58,745 bases of DNA, from the IMG/VR virus record IMGVR_UViG_2531839662_000025; one strand, given 5' to 3'. A program made the position numbers and the translations under genes. The notes under the pieces are model-generated. The model was not told the origin of the DNA. It saw only the letters and a list, made by a program, of their open reading frames with translations, and searched no databases. Shown here one piece after another: positions 14,162-36,303 of this stretch; within the stretch, counting starts at the first letter, position 1; the number at the start of each line of letters is the position of its first letter. The stretch comes from a virus (lineage: Duplodnaviria > Heunggongvirae > Uroviricota > Caudoviricetes).

Positions 14162-14319
14162 GATTCTTTAGCCTTATCCTGTTTAACACGTACCACATCA
14201 CCCGCCGCTATACGGCGGAGCCAGTAGCTGTTTTCTTCCACATTTCGCCCGTCAGAAGGCAAAAGGTCTCCACGGGCAGGGTCAGGAACCGACCGCCCTT
14301 TCAGGGGTTTCACAAACAT
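14158..14319 (-). CDS. small conserved phage protein (53 aa, Mu gp38 position)
   Basis: Hand-translated ORF absent from track (under 60 aa): MFVKPLKGRSVPDPARGDLLPSDGRNVEENSYWLRRIAAGDVVRVKQDKAKES; stop overlaps sheath start (ATGA). Confidence 0.45.
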   Translation of the reverse strand: MFVKPLKGRSVPDPARGDLLPSDGRNVEENSYWLRRIAAGDVVRVKQDKAKES

Positions 14320-14328
14320 GAGGGACTC

Positions 14329-20293: not shown

Positions 20294-20309
20294 TTTGGTA
20301 AGAATATTT
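20294..20309. repeat. putative att core (left junction of satellite)
   Basis: TTGGTAAGAATATTTC; imperfect direct repeat of TTGGTAAAAAAATTC at 35276-35290, located at the terL break point. Confidence 0.5.
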
Positions 20310-20376
20310 CAAGTTTTTTAAAATCACCTGTATATCAATCATTTAACATGAAAAAACAGTCTTTATAAATCATCGA

Positions 20377-20397
20377 GCAATACACAGCGCAATACAC
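20377..20397. repeat. arm-type repeat GCAATACACAGCGCAATACAC
   Basis: Near-identical tandem motif also at 35125-35145 just inside the other satellite end. Confidence 0.5.
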
Positions 20398-20582
20398 GTA
20401 TCTGTATTGTTTTAATGCTGATACACACCGTTTTTTGATACAGTGATTCGACCTACCATCGCGAAGCATTTTTTATTTCTTGTGTGTAACAATCTGACGA
20501 GGTGAGCACTCAAAGAGATAAGAGGCAGTAGAAATTTCGATCCCCCCTGAATGCAATTTTTCGTATATATATACAAAACAGT

Positions 20583-20741
20583 GCGGGTTATGCGGGTTAG
20601 CGGGTTATCTTCGCGTGCTAAGTATTTTTTACTCTTTAATATCAATACGTTAAAAAACAACGTATCTAAATATCAGCCAGAATGTAACCCGCAAGACATT
20701 CAAAATAACCCGCAAACACCACTCAAATAACCCGCAAAAAC
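20583..20741. repeat. iteron cluster (GCGGGTTAT motif), three direct plus three inverted copies around an AT-rich spacer
   Basis: Direct copies at 20584, 20593, 20602; inverted copies at 20686, 20706, 20728. Confidence 0.7.
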
Positions 20742-20816
20742 ATCCCTGAAAGTGGGTGCCGATAATACTGAAAATTTATTCCATTAAATGAGCATTATCC
20801 TCTCTCATCCATTCCG

Positions 20817-22478
20817 TTACACACCATCAAACGTCGCAAGCCGCTCTTTGTGGCTGTCGCTCATATCGAATGCAAATTCCTCATGCTCTGCCTGGAATGT
20901 GCCAAACGCCATCAGCGCCGCAACGCTCGGGTCTATCTTGTTGGATGATTTTTTCTTGTTCGGCTTGATATTGGCGTTCGCGTCACTCTGCATCACAACA
21001 TTACTCATTGACCAGGCCAGCACCGGATCACCACGATGCACAATCACCTTCCGGTTAACAAAAACTTCGAACGATTTCGCCGCCGGACTGAAACGAAGGT
21101 ACGTTTGCGGGAACGGCTCCACCTCAAATCCTGCGCCCTGTAGCTGCGTCCTCAGGTGCGTGGCGTTCCATGTATCGAAACCCACCAGCCTGATATTGAA
21201 ATTCTCTGCATCCGCCATGATGTCATCACGGATACGGTCATAATCAATGCAGTCACCCGGTGTTGTGCGTATCCAGCCCGCCTTTACCCACTGGCGATAG
21301 ATGGCGCGGTTTTTATTGGCGGGGTTCTGTAGCTGAAATTCCGGCAGATAGTGACGGGAAACCAGCATAATCTTTTTACCGACCGGAAAGGCATAGCACA
21401 CGCTGGAAATATCGCTGGTTGATGATAAGTCCAGCCCCGCGTAGCACTCCTGCCCGTATAAATCCGCCTCCGCGAACGTTCCGGCGCACTCCGCCCATGC
21501 ACCGTTACCCATCCACGGCGTGGCCCCCTGACACCAGATATTGAATCGCTTGGTGAGCATTTCCACCCACTGCGACGGAATACCCCGCGCTTTCTGGATG
21601 GTTGAGGCCAGTTTTTCACGATCGACGGAAACATCGATATTGGGATTCGCCTTTATCCACATCGCCGGATCGTCAACCTCGCTTTCATCATCCAGCTCGT
21701 AAATCAGCACGAACATGGATTCGTTCACCTCTTCACCATCCAGTATCTGGCAGCAATAGTCGTAGTGTTGTTTACAGGCTGAAACAACGTTGCTCCCCGA
21801 TGTGGTGATGGCAAATAATAACCCCTCCGGACGCGCCCCCATTCCCAGTTCAAGCGCGGAATAAACCCCGTTGTCAGGGTGCAGGTGATATTCATCCACA
21901 ATGGCAAGACTCGGGTTTGTACCTTCAATGGTTGCCGCTTTTGCTGCCAGTGGCTTTAACAGGCTGTTGGTTTTCGGGTGTATCACCTTGTGTGCCTGAA
22001 TATTTACCCGCTTTCGCAACGGTCGGGATAAAAGGCACATCTGACGCGCATCATCAAACACGATCCGCGCCTGATCACGACTCACGGCGGCGGTGTAAAT
22101 ATCCTGCTGCCCGTTTTCCATAACCAGAAACCAGTTAGCCAGGATAGCGGCGACCGTGGATTTGGCATTTTTTCGCGGCACTTCAATGAATGCGCTGGTG
22201 TATTTGCGCCGTCCGGTGGCCTTAACCTTAAAGCCCAGGATGCACGCAAAGGCGAACTGCTGCCACGGCTCCAGCTCAATGGGGCTACCGCGCATTGCGC
22301 CTTTTACGTGCGGACACACCCTGGAAAAGGCAATAAACCGCTCCACGACCTCCGGATCGAACGTGTAAAGGGGGTTTTCAAGGTCAGAAAAATACCGTTT
22401 AACGGCCTGTTTCAGTCGTTTACAGGCCGTAATTTTGCCGTTTTTTACGCCTTCTGCGTACTCATGCCAGGCGGTCAA
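20817..22478 (-). CDS. terminase large subunit (satellite-encoded, intact)
   Basis: 553-aa ORF with ATPase and nuclease halves. Confidence 0.85.
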   Translation of the reverse strand: MTAWHEYAEGVKNGKITACKRLKQAVKRYFSDLENPLYTFDPEVVERFIAFSRVCPHVKGAMRGSPIELEPWQQFAFACILGFKVKATGRRKYTSAFIEVPRKNAKSTVAAILANWFLVMENGQQDIYTAAVSRDQARIVFDDARQMCLLSRPLRKRVNIQAHKVIHPKTNSLLKPLAAKAATIEGTNPSLAIVDEYHLHPDNGVYSALELGMGARPEGLLFAITTSGSNVVSACKQHYDYCCQILDGEEVNESMFVLIYELDDESEVDDPAMWIKANPNIDVSVDREKLASTIQKARGIPSQWVEMLTKRFNIWCQGATPWMGNGAWAECAGTFAEADLYGQECYAGLDLSSTSDISSVCYAFPVGKKIMLVSRHYLPEFQLQNPANKNRAIYRQWVKAGWIRTTPGDCIDYDRIRDDIMADAENFNIRLVGFDTWNATHLRTQLQGAGFEVEPFPQTYLRFSPAAKSFEVFVNRKVIVHRGDPVLAWSMSNVVMQSDANANIKPNKKKSSNKIDPSVAALMAFGTFQAEHEEFAFDMSDSHKERLATFDGV

Positions 22479-22818
22479 GCTCGTCCTCTTCCTCTGTTTC
22501 CGGTGGATTTCTGCGGCGACTTACCGGGTCAAAACCCAGCAAAGAAGCCATTTTGATCATTATTCTTTCCGCGTCAGCCTTTGCGCTCAGGGCGGGGTTT
22601 CTGCTCTCGCTGCCCTGACTGTTAACAATGCTGAACCCGCGCGTGGCAAGGTCTTCGACGGCTTTGCGGTATATGGAGTAGTTAACGCAATACAGCTCCA
22701 GATTGCTCCAGTCGGCGGGGGTAAGGTCTTCCCGTCCGGAAAGCTGGCGCGATTTTTCCTTCCACTGCCTGACCGCGATTTCATCCAGGTAAGCGGGGGC
22801 TTTTGGTGGTCTTGCCAT
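22462..22818 (-). CDS. terminase small subunit (P27-family-like)
   Basis: Track ORF 22462-22959; likely start MARPPKAP at 22818; upstream of TerL. Confidence 0.65.
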   Translation of the reverse strand: MARPPKAPAYLDEIAVRQWKEKSRQLSGREDLTPADWSNLELYCVNYSIYRKAVEDLATRGFSIVNSQGSESRNPALSAKADAERIMIKMASLLGFDPVSRRRNPPETEEEDELDRLA

Positions 22819-23106
22819 GTTCTTTTTTCGCCCAATTATTTTCAAAAAAAATCCCGTGCACAAAAATTTGAGGAGGCGGTCGGTGTCCGGCAGGGACGGT
22901 TTCGTCCTGAAAACCTCCCCCACCCCCTCTGACAGCCTCACCAGCGATTGCGAAAACATTCCATGACCTCGCGGTCACGGTCGGTTAATCGCTTCGCTGT
23001 GGTGCGTTCTGTGCGCCCTGTCCTGTTAGCTTTGTGCCCTGTCTCCTGTGTCTTCCATAAGTCACGCTGCCTTATCAGTCCACGTATCAGCCTGTTTTGC
23101 TCCTGT

Positions 23107-23547
23107 TCAGTCATCATCGCCATACATCCAGTCGTTACGATGTGCCGCCCGTTCTTCCTGCTCGCGATACATACCCGCCTTACGGTTCGCTTTCGTGGCT
23201 GGATCTTCCCGTGTCGTCTTACGGTTGTGGCACGTCTGGCACAATGCCTGGTGGTTCCACTCAGGCCAGAAGAGAACATCACCGCCGCCATTGATGGGAA
23301 TGATGTGATCCACCACAAGAGCTGGCGTATAAATCCCCTTAGCCAGACAACGCACGCATAACGGGTTTTTGCTCAGGTACAGGGCGCGGTATTTGTCCCA
23401 CTGTCGGGAATACCCGCGCGCGCGGCGGTGTCCCCGTCTGGCATCCTCTGCACGCCATGCAGCCCGCCTGTGCTCTTCACACTTGCCGGACTTCACGCGC
23501 TTATTACAGCCCGGCTCAGTGCATCGCCTTAATGGTTGCCACGGCAT
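23107..23547 (-). CDS. HNH endonuclease (packaging-associated)
   Basis: 146-aa ORF with Cys and His motifs, adjacent to TerS as in HK97-like cos phages. Confidence 0.75.
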   Translation of the reverse strand: MPWQPLRRCTEPGCNKRVKSGKCEEHRRAAWRAEDARRGHRRARGYSRQWDKYRALYLSKNPLCVRCLAKGIYTPALVVDHIIPINGGGDVLFWPEWNHQALCQTCHNRKTTREDPATKANRKAGMYREQEERAAHRNDWMYGDDD

Positions 23548-23846
23548 CAGTACACCCCCACATCACGATAAACCGACCAGAGCGCAGAAATAGCCATAGG
23601 CAGTTCAGACTGCTCCACTGGTGAAACTGCTTCCCTGTTCTCGTACAGGAAAGCGATGTACATCAGGCAACCAACACGCATTGCCGGGGTAAATTCCAGC
23701 CCGTCTTCAAAACGTTTCCCGATATGCTTCTGGCAGGCTTCCAGCGCCGCATCGGTATACATTTTCAGAAGTTCGCCTTCTCCGGAAAAGTCATCAAGGC
23801 GAAGATGTGCCCTGACCTCATCAGGTGTAATTTTTTCTTCACTCAT
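23547..23846 (-). CDS. head-tail connector protein (gp6-like)
   Basis: Track ORF 23547-23927; likely start MSEEKIT at 23846. Confidence 0.6.
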   Translation of the reverse strand: MSEEKITPDEVRAHLRLDDFSGEGELLKMYTDAALEACQKHIGKRFEDGLEFTPAMRVGCLMYIAFLYENREAVSPVEQSELPMAISALWSVYRDVGVY

Positions 23847-25053
23847 CTTTTTCACCTTTAATTTCCACCGTCTGCTTCCATGCCTGGCTGAATTCGTCGC
23901 CACCTTCGCGCGGCGGCATCCCCTCACGTTCGCGGGCTTCGTTCGGATTCATGATCCCGTTCTTAATCCCTTTCTCATACGTGGCGTAACGCTCGGTAGG
24001 GGTGGCGCGCAGTAAATCGGCTGAATCAAACTCAACCAGATAACGGGTACCAGGTACGGGAGAAGCCACCAGCAAAGCGGCCTTGATTTGCTGTTCGAAG
24101 TTCGCCAGCCACGGACGCATTGTCATAGTCAGAAACGCGCGGCTTGCCTCACTGAAATTGCTGTAGGTGCTGTTGCTGTATTCCTGAAGAAAAATCGGCG
24201 ACACGTTGAACATACGGGCAATGTCTTCAATGGAGAAGCGACGGGAGGCCAGCCATTCCGCATCCTGGTTACTCATCCCCAGTTGCCTGTAATCCATGCC
24301 CCCTTCAAGGATTGGCGTTTTTCCGGCATTTTTCGCCCCCTTATAGCGTTCCAGAGCATCTAATGCCTGTTTACCTTTCACGCCGTCCAGCCATTCGCCT
24401 GACGTGATAATCCCTGCCGCCATCATGCCATCTTTCATAATGCTGGCTCCGTGGCGCTGTTGAGCAAGGCCAAGCCCCAGCGCCTCACGGCAAATCGTGA
24501 CAGGGGAGCGCCCCAGAAAGCCATCATCCGAGGCATAGCGGAGATGCAGAACTTCTTCCTGTAAATACGTGCGTACCGTTCCTGTATAGGGTTCGGTGAT
24601 GGTATAGCGGTATTTGTGTGCGCCTGTGCGTTCCGGTACAACACACCCCGGCGCATAAGGATGAAGTGATTTTGGCTGACCGTCCCGCCCCCACTCAATA
24701 ACCGCATAGGCGTTACCGTTCAGCAGGCAGTGACGCATCATTGTGCGTTTAAACTGGTAAGGTGTCTGGCACGAATTAGGCTGCTCATTCAGCAGAATAT
24801 CGACCGGGTGACTGTCCAGCCATTCCCGCGCCTCCCTGCCCTTGTCATTGCGTACCAGATACAGATAACACGGCATCGTGGCCACCGCCTCAGCGATGAC
24901 AGAAACCGCGTTCATCACAGCAGGCAATGATTCAGCCGTCCCGGCAGAAACATATTCTCCGGATCCGGTATTCGGTACGCCGGACAGCGCCAGAAAATCA
25001 TCAATGGACAGGTTACGCAGATCGCTTTTTTTACGACTAAAAGGCCACCACAT
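23839..25053 (-). CDS. portal protein (satellite-encoded)
   Basis: Track ORF 23839-25143; likely start at 25053 abutting protease stop. Confidence 0.8.
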   Translation of the reverse strand: MWWPFSRKKSDLRNLSIDDFLALSGVPNTGSGEYVSAGTAESLPAVMNAVSVIAEAVATMPCYLYLVRNDKGREAREWLDSHPVDILLNEQPNSCQTPYQFKRTMMRHCLLNGNAYAVIEWGRDGQPKSLHPYAPGCVVPERTGAHKYRYTITEPYTGTVRTYLQEEVLHLRYASDDGFLGRSPVTICREALGLGLAQQRHGASIMKDGMMAAGIITSGEWLDGVKGKQALDALERYKGAKNAGKTPILEGGMDYRQLGMSNQDAEWLASRRFSIEDIARMFNVSPIFLQEYSNSTYSNFSEASRAFLTMTMRPWLANFEQQIKAALLVASPVPGTRYLVEFDSADLLRATPTERYATYEKGIKNGIMNPNEAREREGMPPREGGDEFSQAWKQTVEIKGEKDE

Positions 25054-25054
25054 A

Positions 25055-25615
25055 TCACAACCCCGCCAGTTCAGCCCAGCGATGACGATTATTTCCTGTC
25101 GGGCGTAATTCAGGGTGCTGTGCAAACAACGAACGGTGGGCAATCTCCACGCCGGATTCGGGATAAGCAGGCATCGACGTTATCGTGATTTCACGGAGTT
25201 CTGCGGCGGTAACAGTGCGCAGATACGGTTTTTGCGCGATATTCCACTCTTCGCATAATGCGCGAAAGCCAAAGCTCATTCCTGTAATGTCGCCACGCTC
25301 CACCAGCGTAAGCACATCTTTTCCAAGCTGGGTATCAGGCGGTGTCAGTTCAAAACGTAGCCCGGTGTTGTCCTCAGTCAGTACCAGTGTTCCGGATTTG
25401 GTGCGCCCCAGCAGTCGGGTATAGTCATGCTCATACAGGCAGCGCACATCATTACCCGCCGCCAGATAGTCAGCAAAAGCCCCCGGCGTGAACTGTTCGC
25501 GGAATTCGTCCCAGATAATTTCTGAAAGGCTGTTCCAGCGAACGGCATAACCCACCAGTTTTTTATCGCTGGCGGTCAGTTCAGATGTACGGATTTCAAA
25601 ATCGGTATTTTGCAT
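25055..25615 (-). CDS. prohead protease (HK97 family, satellite-encoded)
   Basis: Track ORF 25055-25831; likely start MQNTDFEI at 25615. Confidence 0.75.
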   Translation of the reverse strand: MQNTDFEIRTSELTASDKKLVGYAVRWNSLSEIIWDEFREQFTPGAFADYLAAGNDVRCLYEHDYTRLLGRTKSGTLVLTEDNTGLRFELTPPDTQLGKDVLTLVERGDITGMSFGFRALCEEWNIAQKPYLRTVTAAELREITITSMPAYPESGVEIAHRSLFAQHPELRPTGNNRHRWAELAGL

Positions 25616-25664
25616 CGGTGTACTCCATAAAGCTGAAAAAGGAGGCCGAAGCCCCCTTTGCTCA

Positions 25665-26810
25665 TTACTTGCCAGCCTGAATTTCCAGAATCTTGATGGC
25701 GTTCGAATCCACCACACCACCGCCCAGATATTTCTGGGTATAGATGTTAATGAATCCAGGTTCGCTGAAATCCAGACGGGTACGCGTACCGGTTTCATGG
25801 TCAACGATGAAATAACCGCGCTTAAAGTCACCTACTGCAATCACACCGTCCGGCATAAATTCCAGATATTCAACCGGAAGCCCCAGCAGAGAATCAGGAT
25901 CACCAGCCTGTAAACGATCGCGCCAGATGTAATCACCAGTGGCATTTTTCAGTTTTTGTGCGGAGGCGGCTGTATTTGAGTTCATCACCCATACAGCTTT
26001 TTTGCGGTACTTATTGCGCAGCGTAAATTTCAGGTCAATCAGCATGTCGGCGCTGAGACTGCCAGTAACTTTTTTCGTCTGGAGCGTACCGAAAGGACGG
26101 GTTTTGTCGTTATCCGCAGTGCGCGGAAAAGCCAGGAAACCTTTAGCTTTTTTCTCGCCATCACCGGAAACCAGATCCGTTTCTTCGGTATCAACGAAAG
26201 TGTCGCCAATTTCAGAAGATAACCAGCCCATAATATCGACTTCGGAAAAATCGATAATTTCCTGAGTGGTTTTCGGGTAAGCGTAGATCGGATACAGGCG
26301 GATACTGACTTCATTCAGTTTTGGTGTTGCCGTCTGGTTACGTGCCGCACCTTCTTCGCCGTGTTCAACGACCGCACCCCCGGCAGAAACCAATTGCTTA
26401 AATTCATTGCTGTGAATGGTTTTAACAGTACAGATTTTACGCATCACCGATTCATCAGAAAGCTGACGCATAATTTCTCTGTTCAGTTCCGGGATAACCG
26501 TATAACCACCATCAGCCGGGACACTGCCGGACAGGTTGCGGGTTTCCCCGGTCAGAATGTAAGAGCGCAGTTCGTCTTTGGTTATTTTCTCTTCGACGGA
26601 AACACCAGGCTGGTTACGTTCTTCATCAGCCACAGATTCGAGGCGGGAAATTTCTGTGTCGAGGGAATCGGCTTTTGCACGCAGTTCATCAAACTGTTTG
26701 CCCTCGTCATCGTTCAGGCTGCGGTTTTCACTGTCGGCTTTTTCCAGCAGGGATCGCATCTGGTTTTTCAGGGCGGTTTTTTGCTGGCGGAGTTCGATTA
26801 ATTTCTTCAT
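25665..26810 (-). CDS. major capsid protein (HK97 fold, satellite-encoded)
   Basis: 381-aa ORF with N-terminal coiled-coil; related in pattern to the host prophage MCP. Confidence 0.85.
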   Translation of the reverse strand: MKKLIELRQQKTALKNQMRSLLEKADSENRSLNDDEGKQFDELRAKADSLDTEISRLESVADEERNQPGVSVEEKITKDELRSYILTGETRNLSGSVPADGGYTVIPELNREIMRQLSDESVMRKICTVKTIHSNEFKQLVSAGGAVVEHGEEGAARNQTATPKLNEVSIRLYPIYAYPKTTQEIIDFSEVDIMGWLSSEIGDTFVDTEETDLVSGDGEKKAKGFLAFPRTADNDKTRPFGTLQTKKVTGSLSADMLIDLKFTLRNKYRKKAVWVMNSNTAASAQKLKNATGDYIWRDRLQAGDPDSLLGLPVEYLEFMPDGVIAVGDFKRGYFIVDHETGTRTRLDFSEPGFINIYTQKYLGGGVVDSNAIKILEIQAGK

Positions 26811-27104
26811 GAAGGTTTTCTCGTATTGGTTAAGATTCAGGACGTGAAACCAACACGGAGGGAGCGCCGCCCGACACTCTCGGCATCTCGCAGATCAACC
26901 CGGCATCGCGCAGGGGGTCAGGCGGCATTGTGGCGGCTCACGTCTGAGTGCCACACGCCAACATATACATAAAAATCAGTATGTAAACATCAGCCAGAAT
27001 CACCGAACAACCTGGAACAACCACGAACAAATAATTTACAAAACCTGAAAAAATAAATAAGCTGTTCCGTACATTTTCTGCTCGTCAATCAGGAGGAACG
27101 AACT

Positions 27105-27578
27105 ATGTCAGAAAATGAACTGAAAAAAGCAATGTTCATTCAGCAACGATTGCAGATTCTCCACCTTGGTAAACACTATGATGAGTTCAGCGATTCTTAC
27201 GTGTATGCCTGGGAGGCAGATGTTTATCCTTTCTTGCAGGATGGCGACGGAAGTATTCCTACTCGCCCACATGAAATTTACGAAGAGTTTTTCGGCACAT
27301 CTAAAAACAAAGCTAAAAAGATATACGATCGTCTGTGCAAAGCCTGGCACGACCGGGAGGCGCTCACATTCTATAAACTAGAAAGTGAATATGGTGTAAC
27401 AAGTAGCAGCATGCACGGATGGACACGAAGTGATTTACTTCACATTTGCCGCTATCTGTATCTTGAGGGGTGTTTCGATAAAGATTTCTGGGAAACATTA
27501 CTGGAAAACGGAAAATGCCCAAGCGAAGCACTTTACCTTAGCGATGAATTTAATCGCGATACAGAGATCGACTTCTAA
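27105..27578 (+). CDS. hypothetical protein (accessory cargo gene of the satellite)
   Basis: 157-aa ORF on the opposite strand to all flanking satellite genes, lower GC, own terminator; no family recognised. Confidence 0.6.
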   Translation: MSENELKKAMFIQQRLQILHLGKHYDEFSDSYVYAWEADVYPFLQDGDGSIPTRPHEIYEEFFGTSKNKAKKIYDRLCKAWHDREALTFYKLESEYGVTSSSMHGWTRSDLLHICRYLYLEGCFDKDFWETLLENGKCPSEALYLSDEFNRDTEIDF

Positions 27579-27580
27579 AA

Positions 27581-27614
27581 ATAATGGCCTGGAAAATACC
27601 AGGCCATTATTATT
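27581..27614. terminator. bidirectional rho-independent terminator
   Basis: 10-bp stem AATGGCCTGG/CCAGGCCATT with T/A runs on both sides, between convergent genes. Confidence 0.6.
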
Positions 27615-27902
27615 CTACCGTTTCACGGGATCACGCATTCTGCGCCTTATTTTCCACAGATATTCGATCATCGCTTCCACCTGCTCACGGTTGGTTGCGA
27701 AAATTTCCCCGGTCAGTGAGCTACGCAGAAAATCATGATGATCCACAAAAAATAACGCATCGGAAGAAAGCAGCCGGCGATATTTTTTTACTGTCGTGGT
27801 TTCCAGATCATCAAAACCATGAAACTTTTTATGTTGCTGAACTTCTTCAAATGTCACAGGCATGTTTCCTCCTGCTACCACGATACCAGAAACAGTTAAC
27901 AA
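27615..27902 (-). CDS. hypothetical protein
   Basis: Track ORF; likely start MPVTFEEV at 27863. Confidence 0.4.
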   Translation of the reverse strand: MLTVSGIVVAGGNMPVTFEEVQQHKKFHGFDDLETTTVKKYRRLLSSDALFFVDHHDFLRSSLTGEIFATNREQVEAMIEYLWKIRRRMRDPVKR

Positions 27903-28204
27903 CCGTTATCAATTATCCCCTTTTTTTTCGGGTAGTTCCTGAACATCTCACCGCCAGGTTTCTGTAAGCCCATCCCGGTATGTGTGCGGTTTATGGCCTC
28001 TTTCAGTATTCCGAAATTATCCGGTATGACTGGTTGGCGCGCTGCCTTACGGATACATTCCGCGCGACGCTTTGCCACCTGTTCGCGCTCCTTGTCAGTG
28101 CTCACCAGCCACATAACATCAGCCCAACGTGCCGCCGCTCTCCGGTACAGCCCTTTAGCCTCCAGTTCTTCCGCTTTGCTGTCTTTAATCATGCTGTACC
28201 TCAC
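27896..28204 (-). CDS. PerC-family transcriptional activator homolog
   Basis: About 100 aa containing AEELEAKGLYRRAAARWADVM, the PerC/Pch signature as I recall it. Confidence 0.55.
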   Translation of the reverse strand: MRYSMIKDSKAEELEAKGLYRRAAARWADVMWLVSTDKEREQVAKRRAECIRKAARQPVIPDNFGILKEAINRTHTGMGLQKPGGEMFRNYPKKKGIIDNGC

Positions 28205-28207
28205 TGC

Positions 28208-28633
28208 TTAAAACGGTATCCCGTCCCCGTACGGATCATCGTGCTGGCCTGTCTGTTGTTTTGCCCTGTTCAGTGCGTCAGTAGCCTGGCCCTGCTGGCC
28301 TTTTTTGCCGCCCGGTCGCGCCGTTCGCGCACTGATTACGCTGTCTGCGATGACCTGCCAGCCCTGCCGCATTTCGCCGTTCTGGCCTGTCCACTGGCTT
28401 ACCTGCATGTTACCCGCCACACTCACCAGTTCGCCTTTCTGGTGTTTTGCCAGTGCATCGGCCTGTCTGCCAAACGCCAGGACGGATAACCACATCGTCG
28501 CCGTTCCGTCATCTGCCTGGCTGCACGGCAGGGGAACCGCCATACTCGCCATAGCCATTTGTGTCCCCTTGCTGGTGGTCTTTAACTGCGGGTCAGCCAC
28601 CAGCCGCCCGTAAGCCGCTATCTGTGCTGTCAT
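28208..28633 (-). CDS. single-stranded DNA-binding protein-like
   Basis: 141-aa ORF with Gly/Gln-rich linker and acidic C-terminal tail ending DGIPF. Confidence 0.55.
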   Translation of the reverse strand: MTAQIAAYGRLVADPQLKTTSKGTQMAMASMAVPLPCSQADDGTATMWLSVLAFGRQADALAKHQKGELVSVAGNMQVSQWTGQNGEMRQGWQVIADSVISARTARPGGKKGQQGQATDALNRAKQQTGQHDDPYGDGIPF

Positions 28634-28696
28634 GCTGTCTGTTCTCCGGTTTTAACGTTGATTGTTACGCTTGTTTACACCCTTACGGTGAAATTC

Positions 28697-28820
28697 TGCG
28701 GGTTATAATCGCACTTTTGCGGGTTATAACTGCCGTTTTGCGGGTTACGTGCGGGTTATTGATTTCCTTTTTATTCATACAGTTAATGCACTTATACACA
28801 GGATAACCCGCATAACCCGC
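28697..28820. repeat. putative satellite replication origin: GCGGGTTAT iterons at 21-bp spacing plus inverted copies
   Basis: Direct copies at 28697, 28718, 28739, 28751; inverted at 28803, 28812; immediately downstream of primase. Confidence 0.65.
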
Positions 28821-28843
28821 AACTTTTCACCTCACACAGGGGG

Positions 28844-30964
28844 TTAATCTTCTGCCTCAGGCTGGAACATCAGCACGTAAAAAACATGCTGCTTCCCCCC
28901 AATTTTGCCGAGCGCCTTTTTCTTGTAACGGCGATCGTTACCCGCTTCCAGCATTCCGGCAGCACTCAACGCGCGGGCAAAGTGAGACGGATTAAATCCC
29001 TGTGCTATCTCACCCTCAAATACATGCGGGAACGTGTAAAAACGGAACTCGTCATCTTCGTTTCTGATACTCCCCTTTCTGTATCCGGCAAGCTCTTTAA
29101 TCGGTAAATCACGCTCGTCGGTGTTGGGCCACGGAAGGTATCTGCTGAATCCGAACGACGCTAAAAAAGCCTCTGCCTGTTCAACCATCTGTTTAAACTC
29201 CCTGTTACCCGTGCCGAACTCCTTCACCCAGGCATTAAAATTATGCTGAATGGCATCGCGGCACGCCTGAACATCCCAACCAGTAATATGGACGGAAAGC
29301 ACCAGCGCCGACTCCAGCATGGCGAATCGTTCCCCCACACGGTGAACCTGTTCGCCGTAACTCTCCGGTATCAGGTTGCGCCACCGTTCACGGCATGCCC
29401 TTACCGTATCCTTTGCCTCCTGCTGGTGGTCTGCCAGCCATTTAACCCATTCACGCCCCGCCGCCCCGTGATTTTCTGTCCAGGCATCCTTTAACGCGTC
29501 TGCGTGTGCCTTTCCGGTGCTGTATTCGTGAAACTGCGTGGCTTTTTCCATTGGCACGTTAAGCAGGCGGACAAGCTGCCCCGCCTTGACTTTTATCCCC
29601 TCCGTTTTGAGGAATGTCTCAACGTCCATTTCTCCGGTGCTGATTGCCACCGTGCGCCAGTGTTTGATCTCCCTGTTGCCGCCGTCCTTCGCCCCCTGTA
29701 ATTTCCCCGAACCGTTAAACAGCGTATAAGCCGACGTGGACACTTCCCGCGCGTTTCCGGCCTGACCTATTTCATCTAGGGGTAATAGCCCGTCATTGTG
29801 CGCCTCTGCCTCGTTGGCGATGCCTAACGCTGTACCGTACCAGGTCAGCCGTTGCGCGTCCGGCTCTCCCCATAAACTGGATGCGATGTTCTGTGTGGTG
29901 GTTTTCCCTGCCGATGACTGTTCGAAAAGATGTACCCCGAAGCCGTCAGCGCCCACCAGCCCGATTAATGGTGCAGATAACGATACCGCCACACCCAGCA
30001 TCATGGACGGATTACCACCAGCCAGCCGCGCAACGGTATCGCGCCAGCCCTCCGCCGTTCCTGCCACGGAATAACCATTAACAGCAGCCGTTTTTCCGGT
30101 AAACAGGACTGGCTTTTCGCAATCACCAATGACCGAACCGTCCGGCATGATGTACGCGCCAAAATGCCAGCCCGTTGTTGTGCTTAACTGCCATTCCTCA
30201 TGGTTTCCGCTTAACTGCATCCAGTCAGCCAGGATAGCCCTGTATTTGCCGTTGGTTGTCACGTTCAGGCCGTGGTCTTTCAGCAACCGCCAGCCGTCAC
30301 GGTCGCCAATGCCACCACATGGGATCGCCATTGTGATGACTTCATGGTTTGCTGGCTTTTTCCAGCGCATCACGCGGTAATGCTCTTTACCGATCGTCCC
30401 CGTTCCCAGTAGTTCAAGCGGAGAACATAACCACGTCTCAGGCCGGATAATTTCGCCTGACTGCTTGTCCACTTTTGGCGTTACCCAGAAAACACCATCG
30501 GCGCGGCTTTCAACGCGGGGCTTTAATTCATCATCGCCCTGGCTTTCTGTGATTTTTTTCTTTAAGGGCAACACCAGACTTTCCCCGCGCTCGTATTCGT
30601 CTTTCAGTCGGGCAAGCTGTGGTGTCCAGTCCTCCAGTAAATCGCCGTTCTCGTCACAAAAACAGGCTTCCTTAACACCAGCCACTGCCAGCAGGGTTTC
30701 AATCTGTAGCGCCAGTTTGTCATCCAGTTTTCCGGCACGTCTGACGATGGCGCGTGACCGACCATCATCCACAATACGCAGGTTTTCCAGATTACCCAGG
30801 TCACGCCGTCCGAGATAAACAGGTGGTATTTTGTCGCCGCGCTTTCTGGCTTCTCCGCCCTGCATGTAATGCTCTGCATGGCTGTATGCGTCATCCCCCG
30901 CAAAAATCACTGCATCCTCGCCTTTATCTTTCGGTAACAGTTTTACGTTCGGTGCCAGTTTCAT
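28844..30964 (-). CDS. primase/helicase (P4 alpha-like replication protein)
   Basis: 706-aa ORF with Walker-type NTPase region (SSAGKTT). Confidence 0.7.
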   Translation of the reverse strand: MKLAPNVKLLPKDKGEDAVIFAGDDAYSHAEHYMQGGEARKRGDKIPPVYLGRRDLGNLENLRIVDDGRSRAIVRRAGKLDDKLALQIETLLAVAGVKEACFCDENGDLLEDWTPQLARLKDEYERGESLVLPLKKKITESQGDDELKPRVESRADGVFWVTPKVDKQSGEIIRPETWLCSPLELLGTGTIGKEHYRVMRWKKPANHEVITMAIPCGGIGDRDGWRLLKDHGLNVTTNGKYRAILADWMQLSGNHEEWQLSTTTGWHFGAYIMPDGSVIGDCEKPVLFTGKTAAVNGYSVAGTAEGWRDTVARLAGGNPSMMLGVAVSLSAPLIGLVGADGFGVHLFEQSSAGKTTTQNIASSLWGEPDAQRLTWYGTALGIANEAEAHNDGLLPLDEIGQAGNAREVSTSAYTLFNGSGKLQGAKDGGNREIKHWRTVAISTGEMDVETFLKTEGIKVKAGQLVRLLNVPMEKATQFHEYSTGKAHADALKDAWTENHGAAGREWVKWLADHQQEAKDTVRACRERWRNLIPESYGEQVHRVGERFAMLESALVLSVHITGWDVQACRDAIQHNFNAWVKEFGTGNREFKQMVEQAEAFLASFGFSRYLPWPNTDERDLPIKELAGYRKGSIRNEDDEFRFYTFPHVFEGEIAQGFNPSHFARALSAAGMLEAGNDRRYKKKALGKIGGKQHVFYVLMFQPEAED

Positions 30965-31260
30965 TTTTTACCTCTGGATGCGCTGAGCATGCTTTTTATT
31001 TTCTTAATATTTTCCCGTGCTTTTTCCCTGCTGGTGGGCTTACCGCGTGTTGCGTTCTGTACCAGAGAAAAATCACGCCGGAACTGATAAACAGGCATCA
31101 CGCAGTCATAGCCGTACCCATCACGGCGGTAAGTAACACACCGTCCCGCCACGCTTTTAATCGTTACAGTGCCGCCGTATTTATCTTTGAAAATATCGCC
31201 GGGGCGGATTTCAGGCCGAGCGGGGCCGCTGGCAGTAAAGCCAGAATTTTTCTGTTTCAT
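30961..31260 (-). CDS. hypothetical protein
   Basis: 99-aa ORF overlapping primase start. Confidence 0.45.
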   Translation of the reverse strand: MKQKNSGFTASGPARPEIRPGDIFKDKYGGTVTIKSVAGRCVTYRRDGYGYDCVMPVYQFRRDFSLVQNATRGKPTSREKARENIKKIKSMLSASRGKK

Positions 31261-31265
31261 GGTTT

Positions 31266-31493
31266 TTATTCCGCGTTTATTTTTTTATCGTGAATTTCGA
31301 TCGCTTTATTTAATTCGACGATTACCGTATCGAGTAATGAAATAAACGCACCAGCAAGATTAGATTCACGTTCATCTTCCGGCGCATCACTTAAACCATC
31401 AAGCCAGATAAGCAATATTTGCCGCAAACATTCACTGTTAGTCAGTGCGTTTTCTGCATGGCTCATTGATTTTAAATAACTGTCATCATGCAT
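31266..31493 (-). CDS. hypothetical protein
   Basis: 75-aa acidic ORF. Confidence 0.4.
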   Translation of the reverse strand: MHDDSYLKSMSHAENALTNSECLRQILLIWLDGLSDAPEDERESNLAGAFISLLDTVIVELNKAIEIHDKKINAE

Positions 31494-31689
31494 GGCTCAC
31501 CCCCTGACGAATACGGGCGGCGAATACCATCACACAGCCATCAGGAGATTGCTGGCGTGCTTCCTGTTCGCTGGTGGCCTCGATGTGAATTACGCGCGGT
31601 TGTGCCGTACTCAGGGCGATAAAACGCCAGATATATTTATTCAGGTTGTGCGAGTCCCGCCCTTGCGGGTGTGTGGTATGATTTAACAT
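31486..31689 (-). CDS. hypothetical small protein (67 aa)
   Basis: C-terminal part of the 357-aa track ORF; begins MLNHTTHP just downstream of the divergent promoter region. Confidence 0.35.
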   Translation of the reverse strand: MLNHTTHPQGRDSHNLNKYIWRFIALSTAQPRVIHIEATSEQEARQQSPDGCVMVFAARIRQGVSHA

Positions 31690-31766
31690 AGCTACCTCGA
31701 TACTCTTGCTATCGTTGGTGGTTAGACGCCCTGCATGTGTTGCGAGCACTGCGGGGCGTTGCTTAA

Positions 31767-31867
31767 TTTGAGTGACAAAACTCAAACTGTGCGCACAGAT
31801 TAAAATCATGTGTGCGCACATGTCAATACTTAACATCTCATTTTTTTTGCTGTATTGTGTGCGCCCA
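31767..31867. promoter_or_regulatory. divergent regulatory region with palindromic operator-like sites (TGTGCGCACA)
   Basis: Perfect palindromes at 31788-31797 and 31808-31821, half-site at 31856-31867, inverted repeat at 31767-31786. Confidence 0.5.
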
Positions 31868-31894
31868 TAAAGTCCATTTAAGTGAGGTGCATCA

Positions 31895-32092
31895 ATGTCT
31901 AGCGGTAACACAAACAACAAATCAGCAAAGAAAAATATTCGATTCCCACATGAGCTTATAGATGGGATTGATGCCAGCGTTGAACAAGAAAAATTAACTA
32001 ATCCTAGTGCTAATTTTTCCGCATGGGTCTTAGATGCCTGTGGACGCAAATTAAAATATGAACAGCGCCGGAAGGCCAAAGAATCAGAATAA
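31895..32092 (+). CDS. small putative DNA-binding regulator of the satellite
   Basis: 65-aa ORF transcribed away from the operator-containing promoter region. Confidence 0.4.
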   Translation: MSSGNTNNKSAKKNIRFPHELIDGIDASVEQEKLTNPSANFSAWVLDACGRKLKYEQRRKAKESE

Positions 32093-32134
32093 TCACTATC
32101 AGCGCCGTGGTGTGAGTAACTACGGCGCATTGCT

Positions 32135-32323
32135 ATGCAGGACAACACAATGACCGATAAAGAATTGACCAAAACATTATCACCGACACGGAAAAGACGG
32201 CGCAGAAAGATAGAGCATGAATCAGAAAGATTCGCACCTTGTTCGTTTGCTCTTGAGAAATTCCTTAAAGAGCGCAGGAAAAAGCTCTCGTTGCAAACCC
32301 TGGAACGAACCAAATCTGACTGA
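32135..32323 (+). CDS. small basic hypothetical protein
   Basis: 62-aa ORF followed by a plus-strand terminator. Confidence 0.35.
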   Translation: MQDNTMTDKELTKTLSPTRKRRRRKIEHESERFAPCSFALEKFLKERRKKLSLQTLERTKSD

Positions 32324-32389
32324 TCACATTGCCCACCAGCCGCAAATGTGGCATTGTTGGTGATGCTTTTGTTTTCCCTTGTTCCCACT

Positions 32390-32419
32390 GGCGACCCTTT
32401 TGCGGTCGCCTTTGTTTTG
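32390..32419 (+). terminator. rho-independent terminator
   Basis: GGCGACC/GGTCGCC stem followed by a T-run. Confidence 0.55.
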
Positions 32420-32703
32420 CCTGTTATCCGGCAATAGTGGCGCTTCGTCACCTGTCTGATATAATTCCACAGCTTATATTCATTTTTTGCGCAGTAGGTT
32501 AATTGTTCGCAAGGGCGCTCCGGCAACGGGGCGCTTTTTGTTTTTACCCACCAGCACAATAAAAATCTTCATTTTCCATTTTTGTAAAATTTCATGCTTT
32601 CCGGACGACTGGTCATATGTCATTTTTTAGCAGAAGATTTTGCCTTGCTGGTGGGTAGCTTCCCGGTCAACACGATGTACCGTATAATCAACACCGCGTG
32701 TGG

Positions 32704-33282
32704 TTACTGAATACGCTCACCAAAGTAAAACTCAGGCTGGTATTCACGTATCAGCCTTTTTTCTTCTTCCTCCAGCTCACGCTTTTTGCGCTTACATGCC
32801 TGTAGCTCCCTCCCCTTCTCACTGGCACTTATCTGGTATTGCTCTTTGCGGCGGGAAAAATCCTGTAATGCGCCCCACGGGATACCATAAGCCCCCGTTT
32901 TTCTGATACCCGGTATCACATTTCTGAATACCCAGTTACTGAAACGATGAGCAAATGTGCCAGGCGTCGTTGCTTTGCGGCTGCGGGCTATTAGTTTGTA
33001 GAAACCTGACTCGGAGATAATGCTCATATTCTGATTTCCTCCGGGGGTGTAAGTTAAATTTACTCCCTTTTCGTCATCATCAAGCATCTGCAACGCCGTA
33101 CGCGAATTGGTCAGTTCCAGCGCAGCACAAACATCCTTTGCAACAAACCACGGATCGCCGTTTAGATACACCACACGAACATCCACGCCATCAAAGCGCA
33201 GAACGACCAGATCACGAATATCACAGAATTTTTTCACATGACGTGCGTCACCCTTGCCCGTCACGGCAATATTTTTATTCAT
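32704..33282 (-). CDS. Bro-N domain protein (antirepressor-like)
   Basis: 192-aa ORF with Bro-N-like N-terminal region. Confidence 0.55.
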   Translation of the reverse strand: MNKNIAVTGKGDARHVKKFCDIRDLVVLRFDGVDVRVVYLNGDPWFVAKDVCAALELTNSRTALQMLDDDEKGVNLTYTPGGNQNMSIISESGFYKLIARSRKATTPGTFAHRFSNWVFRNVIPGIRKTGAYGIPWGALQDFSRRKEQYQISASEKGRELQACKRKKRELEEEEKRLIREYQPEFYFGERIQ

Positions 33283-33301
33283 TGCTTTTTACCTCACATA
33301 C

Positions 33302-33328
33302 AAAAAACCCCGCATTGCGTGGTGCGGG
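33302..33328 (-). terminator. rho-independent terminator
   Basis: 7-bp GC-rich stem followed by U-run on minus strand, after the AlpA-like gene. Confidence 0.6.
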
Positions 33329-33339
33329 GTTGTCGGTAA

Positions 33340-33618
33340 TTACTTATTGGCGTTTTTGTATGGGCTGTTTACTTCCTTTACTCCTGGCGGATGCATAACC
33401 CACCAGAGCACATCAGAGAGCAACCAGGAAACAGACACTTTCCCTAAATGAGCACGAGCAGGAAATGCTCCCTCCTGTTCAAGTACCCAACGTCTGCTTC
33501 TTGAAAGCCCGGTACGATTGGCACACTCATGTTCGCGTATACGGCGATCATACGGTTCGCCATGATCTTTCAGAATCTGAATGCGTTCTTCGGGTGTAGG
33601 ATAAATAAATTTTTGCAT
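33340..33618 (-). CDS. AlpA-family regulator / excisionase-like
   Basis: Track ORF 33340-33648; likely start MQKFIYP at 33618; small HTH protein. Confidence 0.55.
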   Translation of the reverse strand: MQKFIYPTPEERIQILKDHGEPYDRRIREHECANRTGLSRSRRWVLEQEGAFPARAHLGKVSVSWLLSDVLWWVMHPPGVKEVNSPYKNANK

Positions 33619-33681
33619 AAAAATATCACCTATAAAAAAACCCGCCAAAAGACGGGTTGATTATATCTCATTTAATTTAGC

Positions 33682-33915
33682 TCAGGGTTTCCATTCACCT
33701 TTTACCCATTCCAGCACCTCAGATAAGCGCCAGACTTTTGTTTGTGGGCCAATACATATTTTTCGTGGAAATTTTCCTTCCTTTTCAAGTAACGATCTGT
33801 GTCTCCTGCCAAGAGCGGTTAACCATGCACATTCATCTTCCTTAATCATCCTGTCGATTGTTTCATCATTTTCAAGTTCTTCACGCGTAACTATTTGAAT
33901 CATTACTGTCACCAC
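33682..33915 (-). CDS. AlpA-family regulator / excisionase-like
   Basis: 77-aa HTH ORF next to integrase. Confidence 0.55.
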   Translation of the reverse strand: MVTVMIQIVTREELENDETIDRMIKEDECAWLTALGRRHRSLLEKEGKFPRKICIGPQTKVWRLSEVLEWVKGEWKP

Positions 33916-35104
33916 TAATTTGCTTATTCAGATAGTCGTACCACCAGTTCATAGCTTCTTTTTTTCTGTCCATATACTGGCTTCTGTTATAAACCCCGGC
34001 AACACCGCCTAATGTGTGCCCAAGCAACTGTTCAACCACATTATGTTCAAAACCATGATCACTTAGTTTTGTGGCAAACACTCTTCGCATATCATGCGCC
34101 GTCCATTTCTCCGAGTGTTTCATCCTTTTCCATGTCTTACCGATAGTTACGCTTGCCGTACACTGACGCATATCAAACCCAATCACATTTTCTTTGTTAC
34201 CTGTTATTTTTTTTAACGTAACTAACCAGTTAAACATGCCATCAGGAATCGGTCTGATTATTTCCCTGCCATTTTTGCTATGATCAGCGGGAACGCGCCA
34301 TAATTTCTTATCAAAATCCCACTCTACCCAGGACGACAGTAATACTTCTGACAGTCGACAACCAAAAACTACCAGGAAACGTAAAATAATTCGGTTTTCA
34401 TATGATAATTCGTGATTGTCATAATCAGTATTAATACTTCGCCATAAATCTCTGATTTCATCATCTGTTAAAACCCTGCTTCTTCGCGCAGACTTTTTTC
34501 CCACATCACAGACCTCAAGATCATCAATTTCATGACTAATCGCGTATTTTCTTACCCTACAAAATTTAAGCGCCTGTTTTGATATACGCAACAAAGCTCC
34601 GGCCTGTACAGGTGCTACTTTTTTTATTTTGTCAAAACACTTAATCCACATAGATATAGAGCAATCACTAAGTGGTACATGACCAATCACCGGATAAATA
34701 TGTTTACCAAAGCACTGCCTGATATGTTCTGCTCCCCTACGCTTATCCATTGCATAATTATCAAGCCAGTATTCAAGTGCCTCACGAACGGTAACAGGTT
34801 GCAAGGTGGCTTCCCGTTCAATTTTTATCTGAATCCGTGGATCTCTGCCCTCCGCAAGCCAGGTTCGACACTGATCGCGCATCTCTCTCGCTGATTTGAG
34901 ACTCAGATCAGGATATTTTCCAAGTGTCAGCCAGATGGGCGCGGTTCCCCTTCCCGCCAGTCTGTAAAAGAAAACAAAACTAACACATCCGTATTTACTG
35001 ACCCGTACCGAAAGCCCGTTACCATCAGCGATGGTTTCCTGCCTCTCACTCCTGCGTCCAAGCAGGGAACGAAGTTTTTTATCGCTCAGTTTGTTTAGCG
35101 CCAT
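33881..35104 (-). CDS. tyrosine integrase (P4-type)
   Basis: Track ORF 33881-35140; likely start MALNKLSDKKL at 35104; P4-type N-terminal arm-binding pattern and C-terminal catalytic region. Confidence 0.8.
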   Translation of the reverse strand: MALNKLSDKKLRSLLGRRSERQETIADGNGLSVRVSKYGCVSFVFFYRLAGRGTAPIWLTLGKYPDLSLKSAREMRDQCRTWLAEGRDPRIQIKIEREATLQPVTVREALEYWLDNYAMDKRRGAEHIRQCFGKHIYPVIGHVPLSDCSISMWIKCFDKIKKVAPVQAGALLRISKQALKFCRVRKYAISHEIDDLEVCDVGKKSARRSRVLTDDEIRDLWRSINTDYDNHELSYENRIILRFLVVFGCRLSEVLLSSWVEWDFDKKLWRVPADHSKNGREIIRPIPDGMFNWLVTLKKITGNKENVIGFDMRQCTASVTIGKTWKRMKHSEKWTAHDMRRVFATKLSDHGFEHNVVEQLLGHTLGGVAGVYNRSQYMDRKKEAMNWWYDYLNKQISGDSNDSNSYA

Positions 35105-35124
35105 GTGATTTATAACCCGTTTTT

Positions 35125-35145
35125 GCAATACACAGTGCAATACAC
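35125..35145. repeat. arm-type repeat GCAATACACAGTGCAATACAC
   Basis: Direct repeat of the motif at 20377-20397. Confidence 0.5.
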
Positions 35146-35275
35146 AAATGATGAAAACAGCCAGAACCTTCCAGAAAAAACAAAAACGACGAACAAGAAA
35201 AAATCTTTTTCTTTCATTTGGTTACTAAAAAAATCAGGACAGGTCGCACTGTTGTTACGGCGTGATGTTACTTTC

Positions 35276-35290
35276 TTGGTAAAAAAATTC
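35276..35290. repeat. putative att core (right junction of satellite)
   Basis: TTGGTAAAAAAATTC at the point where the host terL reading frame is lost. Confidence 0.5.
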
Positions 35291-36303
35291 ACCCGCGCAG
35301 AGACCTGCTCCTTCGCTTTTTTCGCCAGACGACGCAGATCATCCCAGCGTTTACAGATGCCCAGGCCAGGATTCGCTTTCTGCCAGACCGTTTCATCAAA
35401 CGGATCATCTCCCTCATCGAGCGTGTAAATGATCGCAAAGTAGGAGTCGTCTTTTACCGCGCCCTCCACGTCGCTGTTATAGCCTCGCAATACCTTAATG
35501 GCGTAATCGCGCTGCTCGTAGCAAATCCCTTCCTTGTTAAAGCCAGCCGTGGTGATGCCAAATAACAGAGACTGCAGACGGGCACCGGTTGCCGTTTCCA
35601 GAACGTCCCACACGTCACGGGTTTTATGAGCATGCAGCTCATCAATAATGGCGCAGTGGATGTTCAGACCGTCCAGGTTGTTTGCATCCGAGGAAAGCGG
35701 TTCAAATTTTGATGCGCTCTGCTCCTGGTAAATCGCCAGCTTGTTGAAATCAAACAACCGCCCGAGTGTCGACCGGGCTTTTCTGACCATATTTTTGGCG
35801 TCTTCAAACACAATTCTGGCCTGGTCACGCGTGGTTGCGGCTGAATACACCTCAGCACCGCCTTCACCATCTGCCCCCGTCATATACAGGCCGATACCCG
35901 ATGACAGGGTTGATTTTGCGTTTTTACGGGCGACTTCGTTGTACGCCGTCCGGAACCGGCGCACCATCACCGGACGTCCGCTGCCATCGCTGCGTATGAC
36001 AACTTCCCCGGTCTCTTCATTGACCAGCGGAATGACAAAACCAAAAATATTAATGAGGATAAATACATGCCAGTCCATCAGTTCAATGGGCTGGCCTGCC
36101 AGCGCCCCTTTTACATGGGGCACAAATTTGTAGAAATTCAGGATGTGCTGCGCACGGGGTTCACTGAAATAAATCCCCCGCTCTTCGCCGTACTTCAGAT
36201 CATCAAGAAAACGCTGGCAGGCCAGACGGACAAATTCGCCAGCGACAATTTCTCCTGCAACAACACGTTCGGCGTAGCGGATCCCGTCAGCCACTTTTGC
36301 CAT
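35283..36303 (-). pseudogene. terminase large subunit, N-terminal (ATPase) fragment of the host prophage
   Basis: Track ORF 35110-36303: first ~345 aa are TerL-like, then the frame runs into satellite sequence and becomes low-complexity. Confidence 0.8.

Follow-up and report, generated by a model that had tools for sequence, protein, structure and literature searches.

The DNA analysed here (the window) is a 58,745-nucleotide stretch of IMG/VR record IMGVR_UViG_2531839662_000025, a virus assigned to the Caudoviricetes, and its source species is Escherichia coli. All genes from 35.1 down to 20.8 kb lie on the minus strand. They begin with an integrase (33881-35140) and continue through Bro-N, DUF4222 and the DUF927 protein Rep to a repeat array that we call module A, which is followed by SSB, PerC, the major capsid protein, TerL (20817-22478) and a second repeat array, module B (Table 1). 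The copy in E. coli 042 is 98-100% identical and carries annotations for a prohead protease, portal, head-tail connector, HNH and both terminase subunits. A 301-bp region is matched in 733 of 5,426 complete E. coli genomes.

In E. coli 042, a prophage terL pseudogene is split into two halves, one on each side of the element. Tblastn comparison of the prophage TerL fragments with the island's own TerL placed the junctions in the window at ~20305 and ~35272, and the prophage terL is split at a residue equivalent to ~307-311 of the island TerL. The two prophage fragments are at 19565-20290 and 35290-36303, and the island has the same orientation as the gene that it splits. Published work on HE-PICIs lists a terminase insertion site and describes a 'doubled DNA motif' flanking the attP core as unique to these elements (PMC10111431). 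Both a split prophage terL and such a doubled motif are present here. The element also has the features of a capsid-forming PICI (cf-PICI). It falls within the size range of 10-18 kb, encodes an integrase and a replication module as well as capsid, protease, portal, connector, HNH, TerS and TerL proteins of its own, and has no tail or lysis genes (gene list from the E. coli 042 copy). Judged from its gene content and junctions, the element is a capsid-forming PICI in the helper-embedded configuration. It resembles the EcCIEDL933-type cf-PICIs and the HE-PICIs in its size (~15 kb), in having int, rep and the full gene set for an HK97-type head and packaging, and in its insertion in, and co-orientation with, the prophage late gene terL.

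Two further observations concern the island and its setting. A 357-residue ORF at 31486-32559 ends in ~45 residues that match an Icd-like cell-division-inhibitor family. This stretch is annotated as several small genes in E. coli 042, and the long ORF may be an artefact of a TTG start. In addition, a sister island (locus L028), whose Rep is 87% identical with a swapped C-terminus, is inserted in terL at the same site, within a prophage whose genes include Shiga-toxin-like ones (RIP and SLT_beta domains; L028:1-403).

Table 1. Features of the island and its repeat modules. Coordinates are window positions except where a related locus (L number) is named.
Feature	Coordinates	Strand	Remarks
Whole satellite, capsid-forming PICI in prophage terL	20295..35282	-	~15.0 kb; TTGGTAA att cores at 20295-20301 and 35276-35282
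Doubled motif GCAATACACAG[C/T]GCAATACAC	20377..20399; partner 35125-35147	.	Just inside both ends; presumed integrase arm sites
Near-palindromic (TA)n box TTTTCGTATATATATACAAAAC	20556..20579	.	Starts 7 bp from the tight iterons of module B
Module B	20582..20737	-	Inverted relative to module A; on the gene strand, three iterons at 22/21 bp, 76-bp AT-rich spacer, three tight iterons at 8-9 bp
SSB gene	28208..28633	-	Part of the replication module; Pfam SSB E = 1.4e-15; annotated as SSB in E. coli 042
Module A, distal half	28697..28759	+	Four iterons in opposite orientation, spaced 21/21/11 bp
Module A, AT-rich spacer	28760..28802	.	43 bp, 30% GC; presumed unwinding region
Module A, Rep-proximal half	28803..28821	-	Two tight iterons, TGCGGGTTAT twice on the gene strand, 9-bp spacing, 22 bp past the rep stop
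Rep, 706-residue DUF927 helicase-initiator	28844..30964	-	Pfam DUF927 E = 1e-45
Orphan GCGGGTTA modules B	L025:9056-9210; L028:20432-20583; L032:14134-14286; L033:14043-14195		

DUF927 is the sole Pfam match of Rep, in which three parts can be distinguished: an N-terminal region of ~140 residues, a core resembling the AAA+ domains of Cch and the SaPI Reps, and a C-terminal specificity domain of ~100 residues. A phmmer search of PDB sequences matched a staphylococcal 'Pathogenicity island protein' (8tch, E = 6.5e-14) and the SCCmec helicase Cch (5dgk, E = 0.002), and a match to the NCBIfam Cch1 family fell below the cut-off. An AlphaFold model of full-length Rep built with 41 homologues has a mean pLDDT of 60, with residues 339-476 and 582-706 below 50, and a Foldseek search with this model returned 5dgk as the sole significant match (E = 3e-8, TM 0.52). 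The Walker A (G353 K354 T355) and Walker B (D397 E398) residues are invariant in the 41 homologues. On the strength of these matches, Rep is predicted to be a self-loading AAA+ (MCM-like) helicase of the SaPI Rep and Cch family.

The original prediction had named the adjacent gene a primase or primase/helicase. No primase domain was detected in Rep by Pfam, NCBIfam or fold search, and therefore 'helicase-initiator' is a defensible name for this DUF927 protein of the Cch and SaPI Rep type, and 'primase' is unsupported. Longer relatives, such as the Rep of a Serratia island (L016), carry Zn_Ribbon_Prim and Toprim_3 domains ahead of DUF927, a module that is absent from the window Rep. The corresponding first 140 residues (30545-30964) match no Pfam family and are ~45% identical to the start of the EcCICFT073 'Pri' protein, whose helicase part is of the D5 type. 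AlphaFold predicts an alpha/beta fold for this N-terminal domain with good confidence (pLDDT 83-91). Nothing in the PDB matched it significantly, the Argonaute-like hits having E ~0.1. The C-terminal domain, modelled separately as residues 540-706 with 20 homologues, has a pLDDT of 47, and a profile search of PDB sequences with this domain gave only a chance match to septin.

Module A is located 22 bp from the rep stop codon (28844-46) and 64 bp upstream of the start of the SSB gene. Its direct copies are TGCGGGTTAT at 28697-28706 and 28718-28727, TGCGGGTTAC at 28739-28748, and TGCGGGTTAT again at 28750-28759, with start-to-start distances of 21, 21 and 11 bp. The inverted copies, ATAACCCGCA, are at 28803-28812 and 28812-28821 with a spacing of 9 bp. 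The GC content of the intervening AT-rich spacer compares with 50% for the window as a whole. A short T run precedes each copy of the 21-bp-spaced series, which is TTTTG for two of them and TTCTG for the first. A repeat-finding program recovered the same repeat families. Direct reading thus bears out the arrangement given in the original prediction, with four direct repeats, three of them phased at 21 bp, then an AT-rich stretch and two inverted copies, and also its position immediately after the gene that was called a primase/helicase. The proposed repeat word held only in part. All six copies share the core GCGGGTTA, the four direct ones included, and the GCGGGTTAT form is present in only three of the four direct copies, the ones that have the final T.

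The word GCGGGTTA occurs 14 times in the window, compared with 1.58 occurrences expected and a maximum of five among 100 shuffles, which excludes chance as an explanation for the repeats. Twelve of the 14 copies are confined to two clusters. In an alignment of 27 distinct module A copies, taken from E. coli and IMG/VR, invariant positions make up 42 of 48 iteron columns versus 63 of 172 other columns (Fisher p = 2e-10). As judged from this alignment, the iteron columns are under constraint and are far more conserved than their flanks.

Other short elements are found around the array. The gap between the rep stop codon and the first iteron (28823-28843) contains a short motif, CTGTGTGAGGTGAAAAG on the gene strand. 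Relatives whose iteron words differ have this motif at the equivalent position as YACAYGYGAG followed by an A/T run. Two Chi octamers (GCTGGTGG) are present in opposite orientation, 34 bp apart, at 28571-28578 and 28597-28604 in the 5′ end of the SSB gene, ~100 bp from the array. The window contains 28 Chi sites in 58.7 kb. Among 21 related loci, 10 have a Chi site on the rep strand within 600 bp of the rep stop codon, compared with ~3 expected. An Rfam scan of the region from 19.5 to 36.5 kb gave no family match.

Relatives were collected by scanning one genome per GTDB species, which yielded 20 loci from 12 genera with Reps that are 55-77% identical to that of the window. Their hosts include Escherichia albertii, Serratia, Rahnella, Pantoea, Citrobacter, Yersinia, Cedecea and others. 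A strongly over-represented 8-mer is found just past rep in 19 of the 20 loci, and the twentieth locus ends at the gene. The layout of module A after the homologous gene is likewise the same in 19 of the 20 relatives from other genera. Across 21 loci, the module begins +22 to +31 nt after the rep stop codon and is led by the tight pair ('>9>'). In the direction of the gene, the relatives have two or three tight copies spaced by 9 bp, an AT-rich spacer of 52-65 bp, and inverted copies at 11, 21 and 21 bp. This '<11<21<21<' pattern is maintained in relatives with different iteron words. One Yersinia pekkanenii locus (L011) has three GTTGGTTC iteron regions (7152-7412, 11734-11994 and 12915-13205), one of them within the stretch that matches Rep, which suggests that its replication module has been duplicated or disrupted.

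Seven classes of iteron word were distinguished: GCGGGTTA (the window), GTGGGTTA, CGTGGTTC, GTTGGTTC, TTGTCCCA/TTATCCCA, YCGGTTCA and TTGTCTCA. Among 21 proteins, the closest sequence over Rep residues 612-706 belongs to the same iteron class in 18 of 18 cases, compared with 11 of 18 when the helicase core (residues 160-575) is used. Pairs from different classes are 28-70% identical in the C-terminal domain (median 41%), and their cores are up to 98% identical. Natural domain swaps are among these pairs. For example, the window Rep is 96% identical to the Reps of L028 or L002 in the core, compared with 31-33% in the C-terminal domain, and the iterons are unrelated. Similarly, L005 and L018 have cores that are 89% identical, C-terminal domains that are 43% identical, and different words. 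For an E. coli protein with 87% overall identity (P0004), the iteron word was predicted from its TTGTCCCA-class C-terminus before the locus was inspected, and the prediction agreed with the iterons found there (GTTGTCCCA). Another protein, P0101, has a new C-terminus together with a new word, GTTGTCTCA. Finally, the tight pair GCGGGTTATGCGGGTTA is found in 71 IMG/VR loci, where every A-type module is located 25-30 bp past a GCGGGTTA-class C-terminal domain. In these comparisons, a change of iteron word goes together with a change in the final ~100 residues of Rep, domain swaps included, which supports the assignment of origin specificity to the C-terminal domain.

The original prediction treated the origin as a single array. 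The array is there, but a second module with the same word was missed, which is inverted and located 8.1 kb from module A at the att-proximal end of the island, beyond the block of genes from SSB to terL. In plus-strand coordinates, the tight copies of module B are at 20583-20607 (spacings of 9 and 8 bp), its spacer has a GC content of 30%, and the inverted copies are at 20685-20735 (21/22 bp). Read on the opposite strand, module B aligns with module A unit for unit. The distal end of L028 matches module B with 94% identity, and the orthologue of module B in 12 relatives is the module immediately adjoining module A. In an excised circle, module B would be positioned just upstream of att and int. 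Across the family, modules B have a fixed design of two or three copies at 21-23 bp, an AT-rich spacer of 51-85 bp and three tight inverted copies, often with one inverted copy ahead of them. A (TA)n box with the form TTTTGTATATATATACGAAAA is found ~7-10 bp past the tight copies. The box is invariant in six of seven aligned E. coli distal modules, with L028 having a 9-nt duplication beside it, and it also follows module B in other iteron classes and genera. This box may be an unwinding element.

The position of module B relative to module A varies. The two modules abut in 12 loci, are 170 bp apart in L005, and lie 2.2-8.1 kb from each other in five further lineages, namely the window, L002, L013, L016 and L019; L009 and L010 have module A only. 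Wherever module B is present, among the GTDB relatives and two loci that were looked up, its word is the same as that of module A. The DNA between the modules differs by lineage. L002 has SSB and PerC there, the Serratia island L016 has Dit-like, baseplate-plug and baseplate-hub tail genes (11970-15093), and the Serratia fonticola locus L019 encodes a PemK/MazF-like toxin (12204-12638). Within the GCGGGTTA class in IMG/VR, modules A and B are adjacent in 13 loci, and many others have module A after rep and module B 7-10.7 kb away (in one locus or in two loci on one contig). Another E. coli PICI, located near dinD, has module A after rep and module B 10.6 kb away behind unrelated cargo. A search of a phage database with module B gave only one partial match of 75 nt, and thus there is no sign that a helper phage carries module B iterons. 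Most likely, module B is a second Rep-binding site that would act as an auxiliary or duplicate origin. Taken together, the sequences indicate that islands of this kind usually carry two inverted origin modules.

Scans for sigma-70-like promoters and for terminators in the regions of both modules gave nothing above background. These results bear on the possibility that the repeats take no part in replication and are purely a regulatory operator, where Rep or some other protein encoded by the island binds to control transcription of the downstream SSB-PerC-capsid genes. The array does lie between two co-directional genes, close upstream of ssb, with no predicted terminator, and in relatives a start codon is found within ~25 bp of the module B box. 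However, neither region has a promoter in our scans, and the arrangement of opposed iterons around an AT-rich core after the gene for a self-loading helicase is the layout of experimentally defined SaPI and PICI origins. We therefore consider an exclusively regulatory function very improbable, whereas a dual role as origin and operator would be compatible with these observations. Two more specific candidates near module B were also considered and dropped. The first was a Rep-activated sigma-70 promoter at module B; the (TA)n box lacks a TAnnnT hexamer and no promoter was called. The second was a cos site at the GACGAGG[CT]G motif near module B; EcCICFT073 has a canonical lambda cosN elsewhere and this motif is absent there.

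The location of module B just past the terL gene of a capsid-forming island also raises the possibility of a packaging signal, in which the repeats serve as a cos or pac accessory site for the small terminase of the island. However, the same arrays follow rep in relatives that have no capsid, terminase or any other packaging genes, which argues that they are not packaging sites. Furthermore, the word tracks the C-terminus of Rep and not the terminase, and EcCICFT073 has lambda-type cos sites whose sequence bears no relation to the repeats. A packaging function is accordingly the least probable of the explanations considered, with hardly any likelihood of being correct.

Satellite P4 provides a more substantial alternative to a start site within module A. 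In P4, the cis-acting element crr follows directly on the stop codon of the alpha gene and has attP on its other side, and the origin is 4.7 kb away. Both carry the same 8-bp iteron, tight 9-bp pairs included. Because the P4 iteron cluster that directly follows the helicase gene is crr and not the start site, position alone does not identify the start site. By analogy, module A might be a crr-like enhancer and replication might start at module B, with Rep bridging the two. The window has two separate clusters of one short word, 8.1 kb apart, one after the helicase gene and one near attP-int in the circular form. As in P4, tight pairs (9-10 bp) and inverted copies flank AT-rich DNA, and module B has the additional (TA)n box, which is highly conserved and easily melted. 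Nevertheless, L009 and L010 have module A alone, which argues indirectly against a need for both clusters in cis, module A is the one that is invariably coupled to Rep, and module B occurs together with initiators that do not match it. In the family of DUF927 Reps, unlike in P4, modules A and B are usually adjacent, and some members have just one of the two. Module A by itself also conforms to the SaPI rule, under which an AT-rich centre is flanked on either side by two or more iterons. The window shares with P4 the separated clusters of a common iteron but not the alpha-type initiator. Rep is not a homologue of P4 alpha, which combines a Zn-ribbon/Toprim primase with a D5 SF3 helicase and a Pox_D5 C-terminus and gave no meaningful BLASTP match to the window Rep. 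We therefore regard a P4-like two-site replicon as unlikely, although it is the strongest of these competing explanations.

The closest precedents for module A are the origins of SaPIs and of a Gram-negative PICI. SaPI origins are located immediately downstream of rep and contain 6-12 iterons and a central AT-rich region with at least two opposed iterons per side (PMC9371898). The SaPI Reps (Rep1 and PriRep5) are self-loading initiator-helicases whose C-terminal winged helix binds the iterons without ATP (PMC9371898). Module A conforms to this plan. It is directly downstream (3ˊ) of the gene for a helicase-initiator, which is an MCM-like AAA+ protein homologous to the SaPI Reps and to SCCmec Cch (5dgk) by sequence and fold, and its six iterons are split by an AT-rich centre into opposed groups, four on the plus strand and two on the minus strand. 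As in SaPIs, origin specificity appears to reside in the C-terminal domain, here on the basis of covariation. The window system differs from that of SaPIs in its Gram-negative host, in its iterons of 8-10 bp versus 5-6 bp, in the phasing of one side by two helical turns (21 bp), in the presence of a second, inverted module, and in an N-terminal domain that showed no relation to primases in domain and fold searches. Comparison with the SaPI winged helix is limited by the model of the window C-terminal domain, which has the pLDDT of 47 given above and falls below 50 for residues 582-706 in the full-length model.

Autonomous replication of a plasmid from Rep plus ori has been assayed by cloning for SaPIs and for EcCICFT073. 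For EcCICFT073, a pri-ori segment maintained a plasmid, and maintenance dropped on deletion of rep or ori (Fillol-Salom et al. 2018, PMC6092414). The window element belongs to the same satellite class and has the same order of DUF4222, initiator, ori, SSB, PerC and capsid, and the first ~140 residues of the initiator are common to both. We read the EcCICFT073 origin directly; it is likewise downstream of the initiator and consists of a tight 9-bp CTGTCTACC pair, an AT-rich region and inverted copies. Unlike the window Rep, the EcCICFT073 helicase is of the P4-alpha type (D5_N/DUF5906/Pox_D5) and not DUF927. Its iteron is CTGTCTACC, and that island is without any GCGGGTTA module. In published text on cf-PICIs and HE-PICIs, the origin of the DUF927 Rep class and a distal second module are not described, and a literature text search for the iteron string found only unrelated primers (both searches covering the searchable text).

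The layout expected of a satellite origin, which the original prediction saw in this array, is therefore present in all its sequence-level features, and the repeats are tied to the C-terminal domain of the adjacent protein by comparison. We consider it highly likely that module A (28697-28821) is the cognate replication origin of this helper-embedded, capsid-forming PICI. We also infer that it is the actual start site. In the mechanism that we propose, the C-terminal ~100 residues of the DUF927 Rep would read the 8-10-bp iterons, as suggested by homology to the SaPI Reps and by covariation. Rep would bind to the tight pair on one side of the 43-bp spacer and to the helically phased 21-bp copies on the other. 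The AT-rich spacer would then melt, and Rep might load itself there as a hexameric 3ˊ-5ˊ helicase, with the neighbouring SSB presumably coating the unwound strands. Because no primase domain was detected in Rep, priming would be left to a primase of the host or the helper.

Some modules B are found in islands whose initiators do not match them. Specifically, GCGGGTTA-type modules B with their box are located at the att-proximal end of E. coli PICIs that carry a non-matching initiator (Table 1). Four such islands (L025, L074, L076 and L081) have a D5-type Pri, and in the one that was read, L025, the iterons after pri are CTGTCTACC. In two others (L028 and L032), the initiator is a DUF927 Rep of the GTYGTCCCA class with adjacent modules A and B of its own, and a further one (L033) has a truncated pri. 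Among the resolved cases of module B, 21 are matched to their initiator and seven are unmatched. The presence of this module in PICIs of another initiator class indicates that not every GCGGGTTA copy is serviced by the resident Rep. In the unmatched set, 47 of 48 iteron columns and 13 of 13 box columns are invariant, compared with 111 of 159 other columns (p = 1e-5), although these lineages were perhaps orphaned recently and the column test thus does not prove selection in the orphan state.

These orphan modules may be kept for a reason that is independent of the resident Rep. One tentative proposal, which we think is rather unlikely to be right, is that module B is a portable, Rep-class-specific origin cassette, found next to att in many E. 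coli PICIs whatever initiator they encode, that is replicated in trans by the GCGGGTTA-class Rep of a co-resident satellite, or that titrates this Rep. Alternatively, orphan modules B might result from frequent and recent recombination of the distal segment. In a weaker variant of the proposal, the family origin is intrinsically bipartite, and the junction of modules A and B is a recurrent entry point for cargo, five lineages having inserts of 2.2-8.1 kb there.

Origins of this kind, islands of this kind and their insertion within a late gene of a prophage have all been published before, and the identification of module A in itself adds little, since SaPI and PICI origins of such design have been described and one Gram-negative example has been tested. 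The additions made here are modest and consist of the family-wide design of modules A and B, the table of C-terminus and iteron pairs, and the orphan modules. This analysis does pin the origin and the specificity domain of the DUF927-class initiators of Gram-negative PICIs, a class that is common in E. coli (733/5,426). The seven pairs of Rep C-terminus and iteron, including natural swaps, provide a resource on how self-loading helicases read DNA. If the proposed role of the orphan modules B is correct, they would represent origin sharing or piracy between satellites, and the mismatch between module B and the resident initiator, if functional, would be a new layer of interaction between co-resident satellites.
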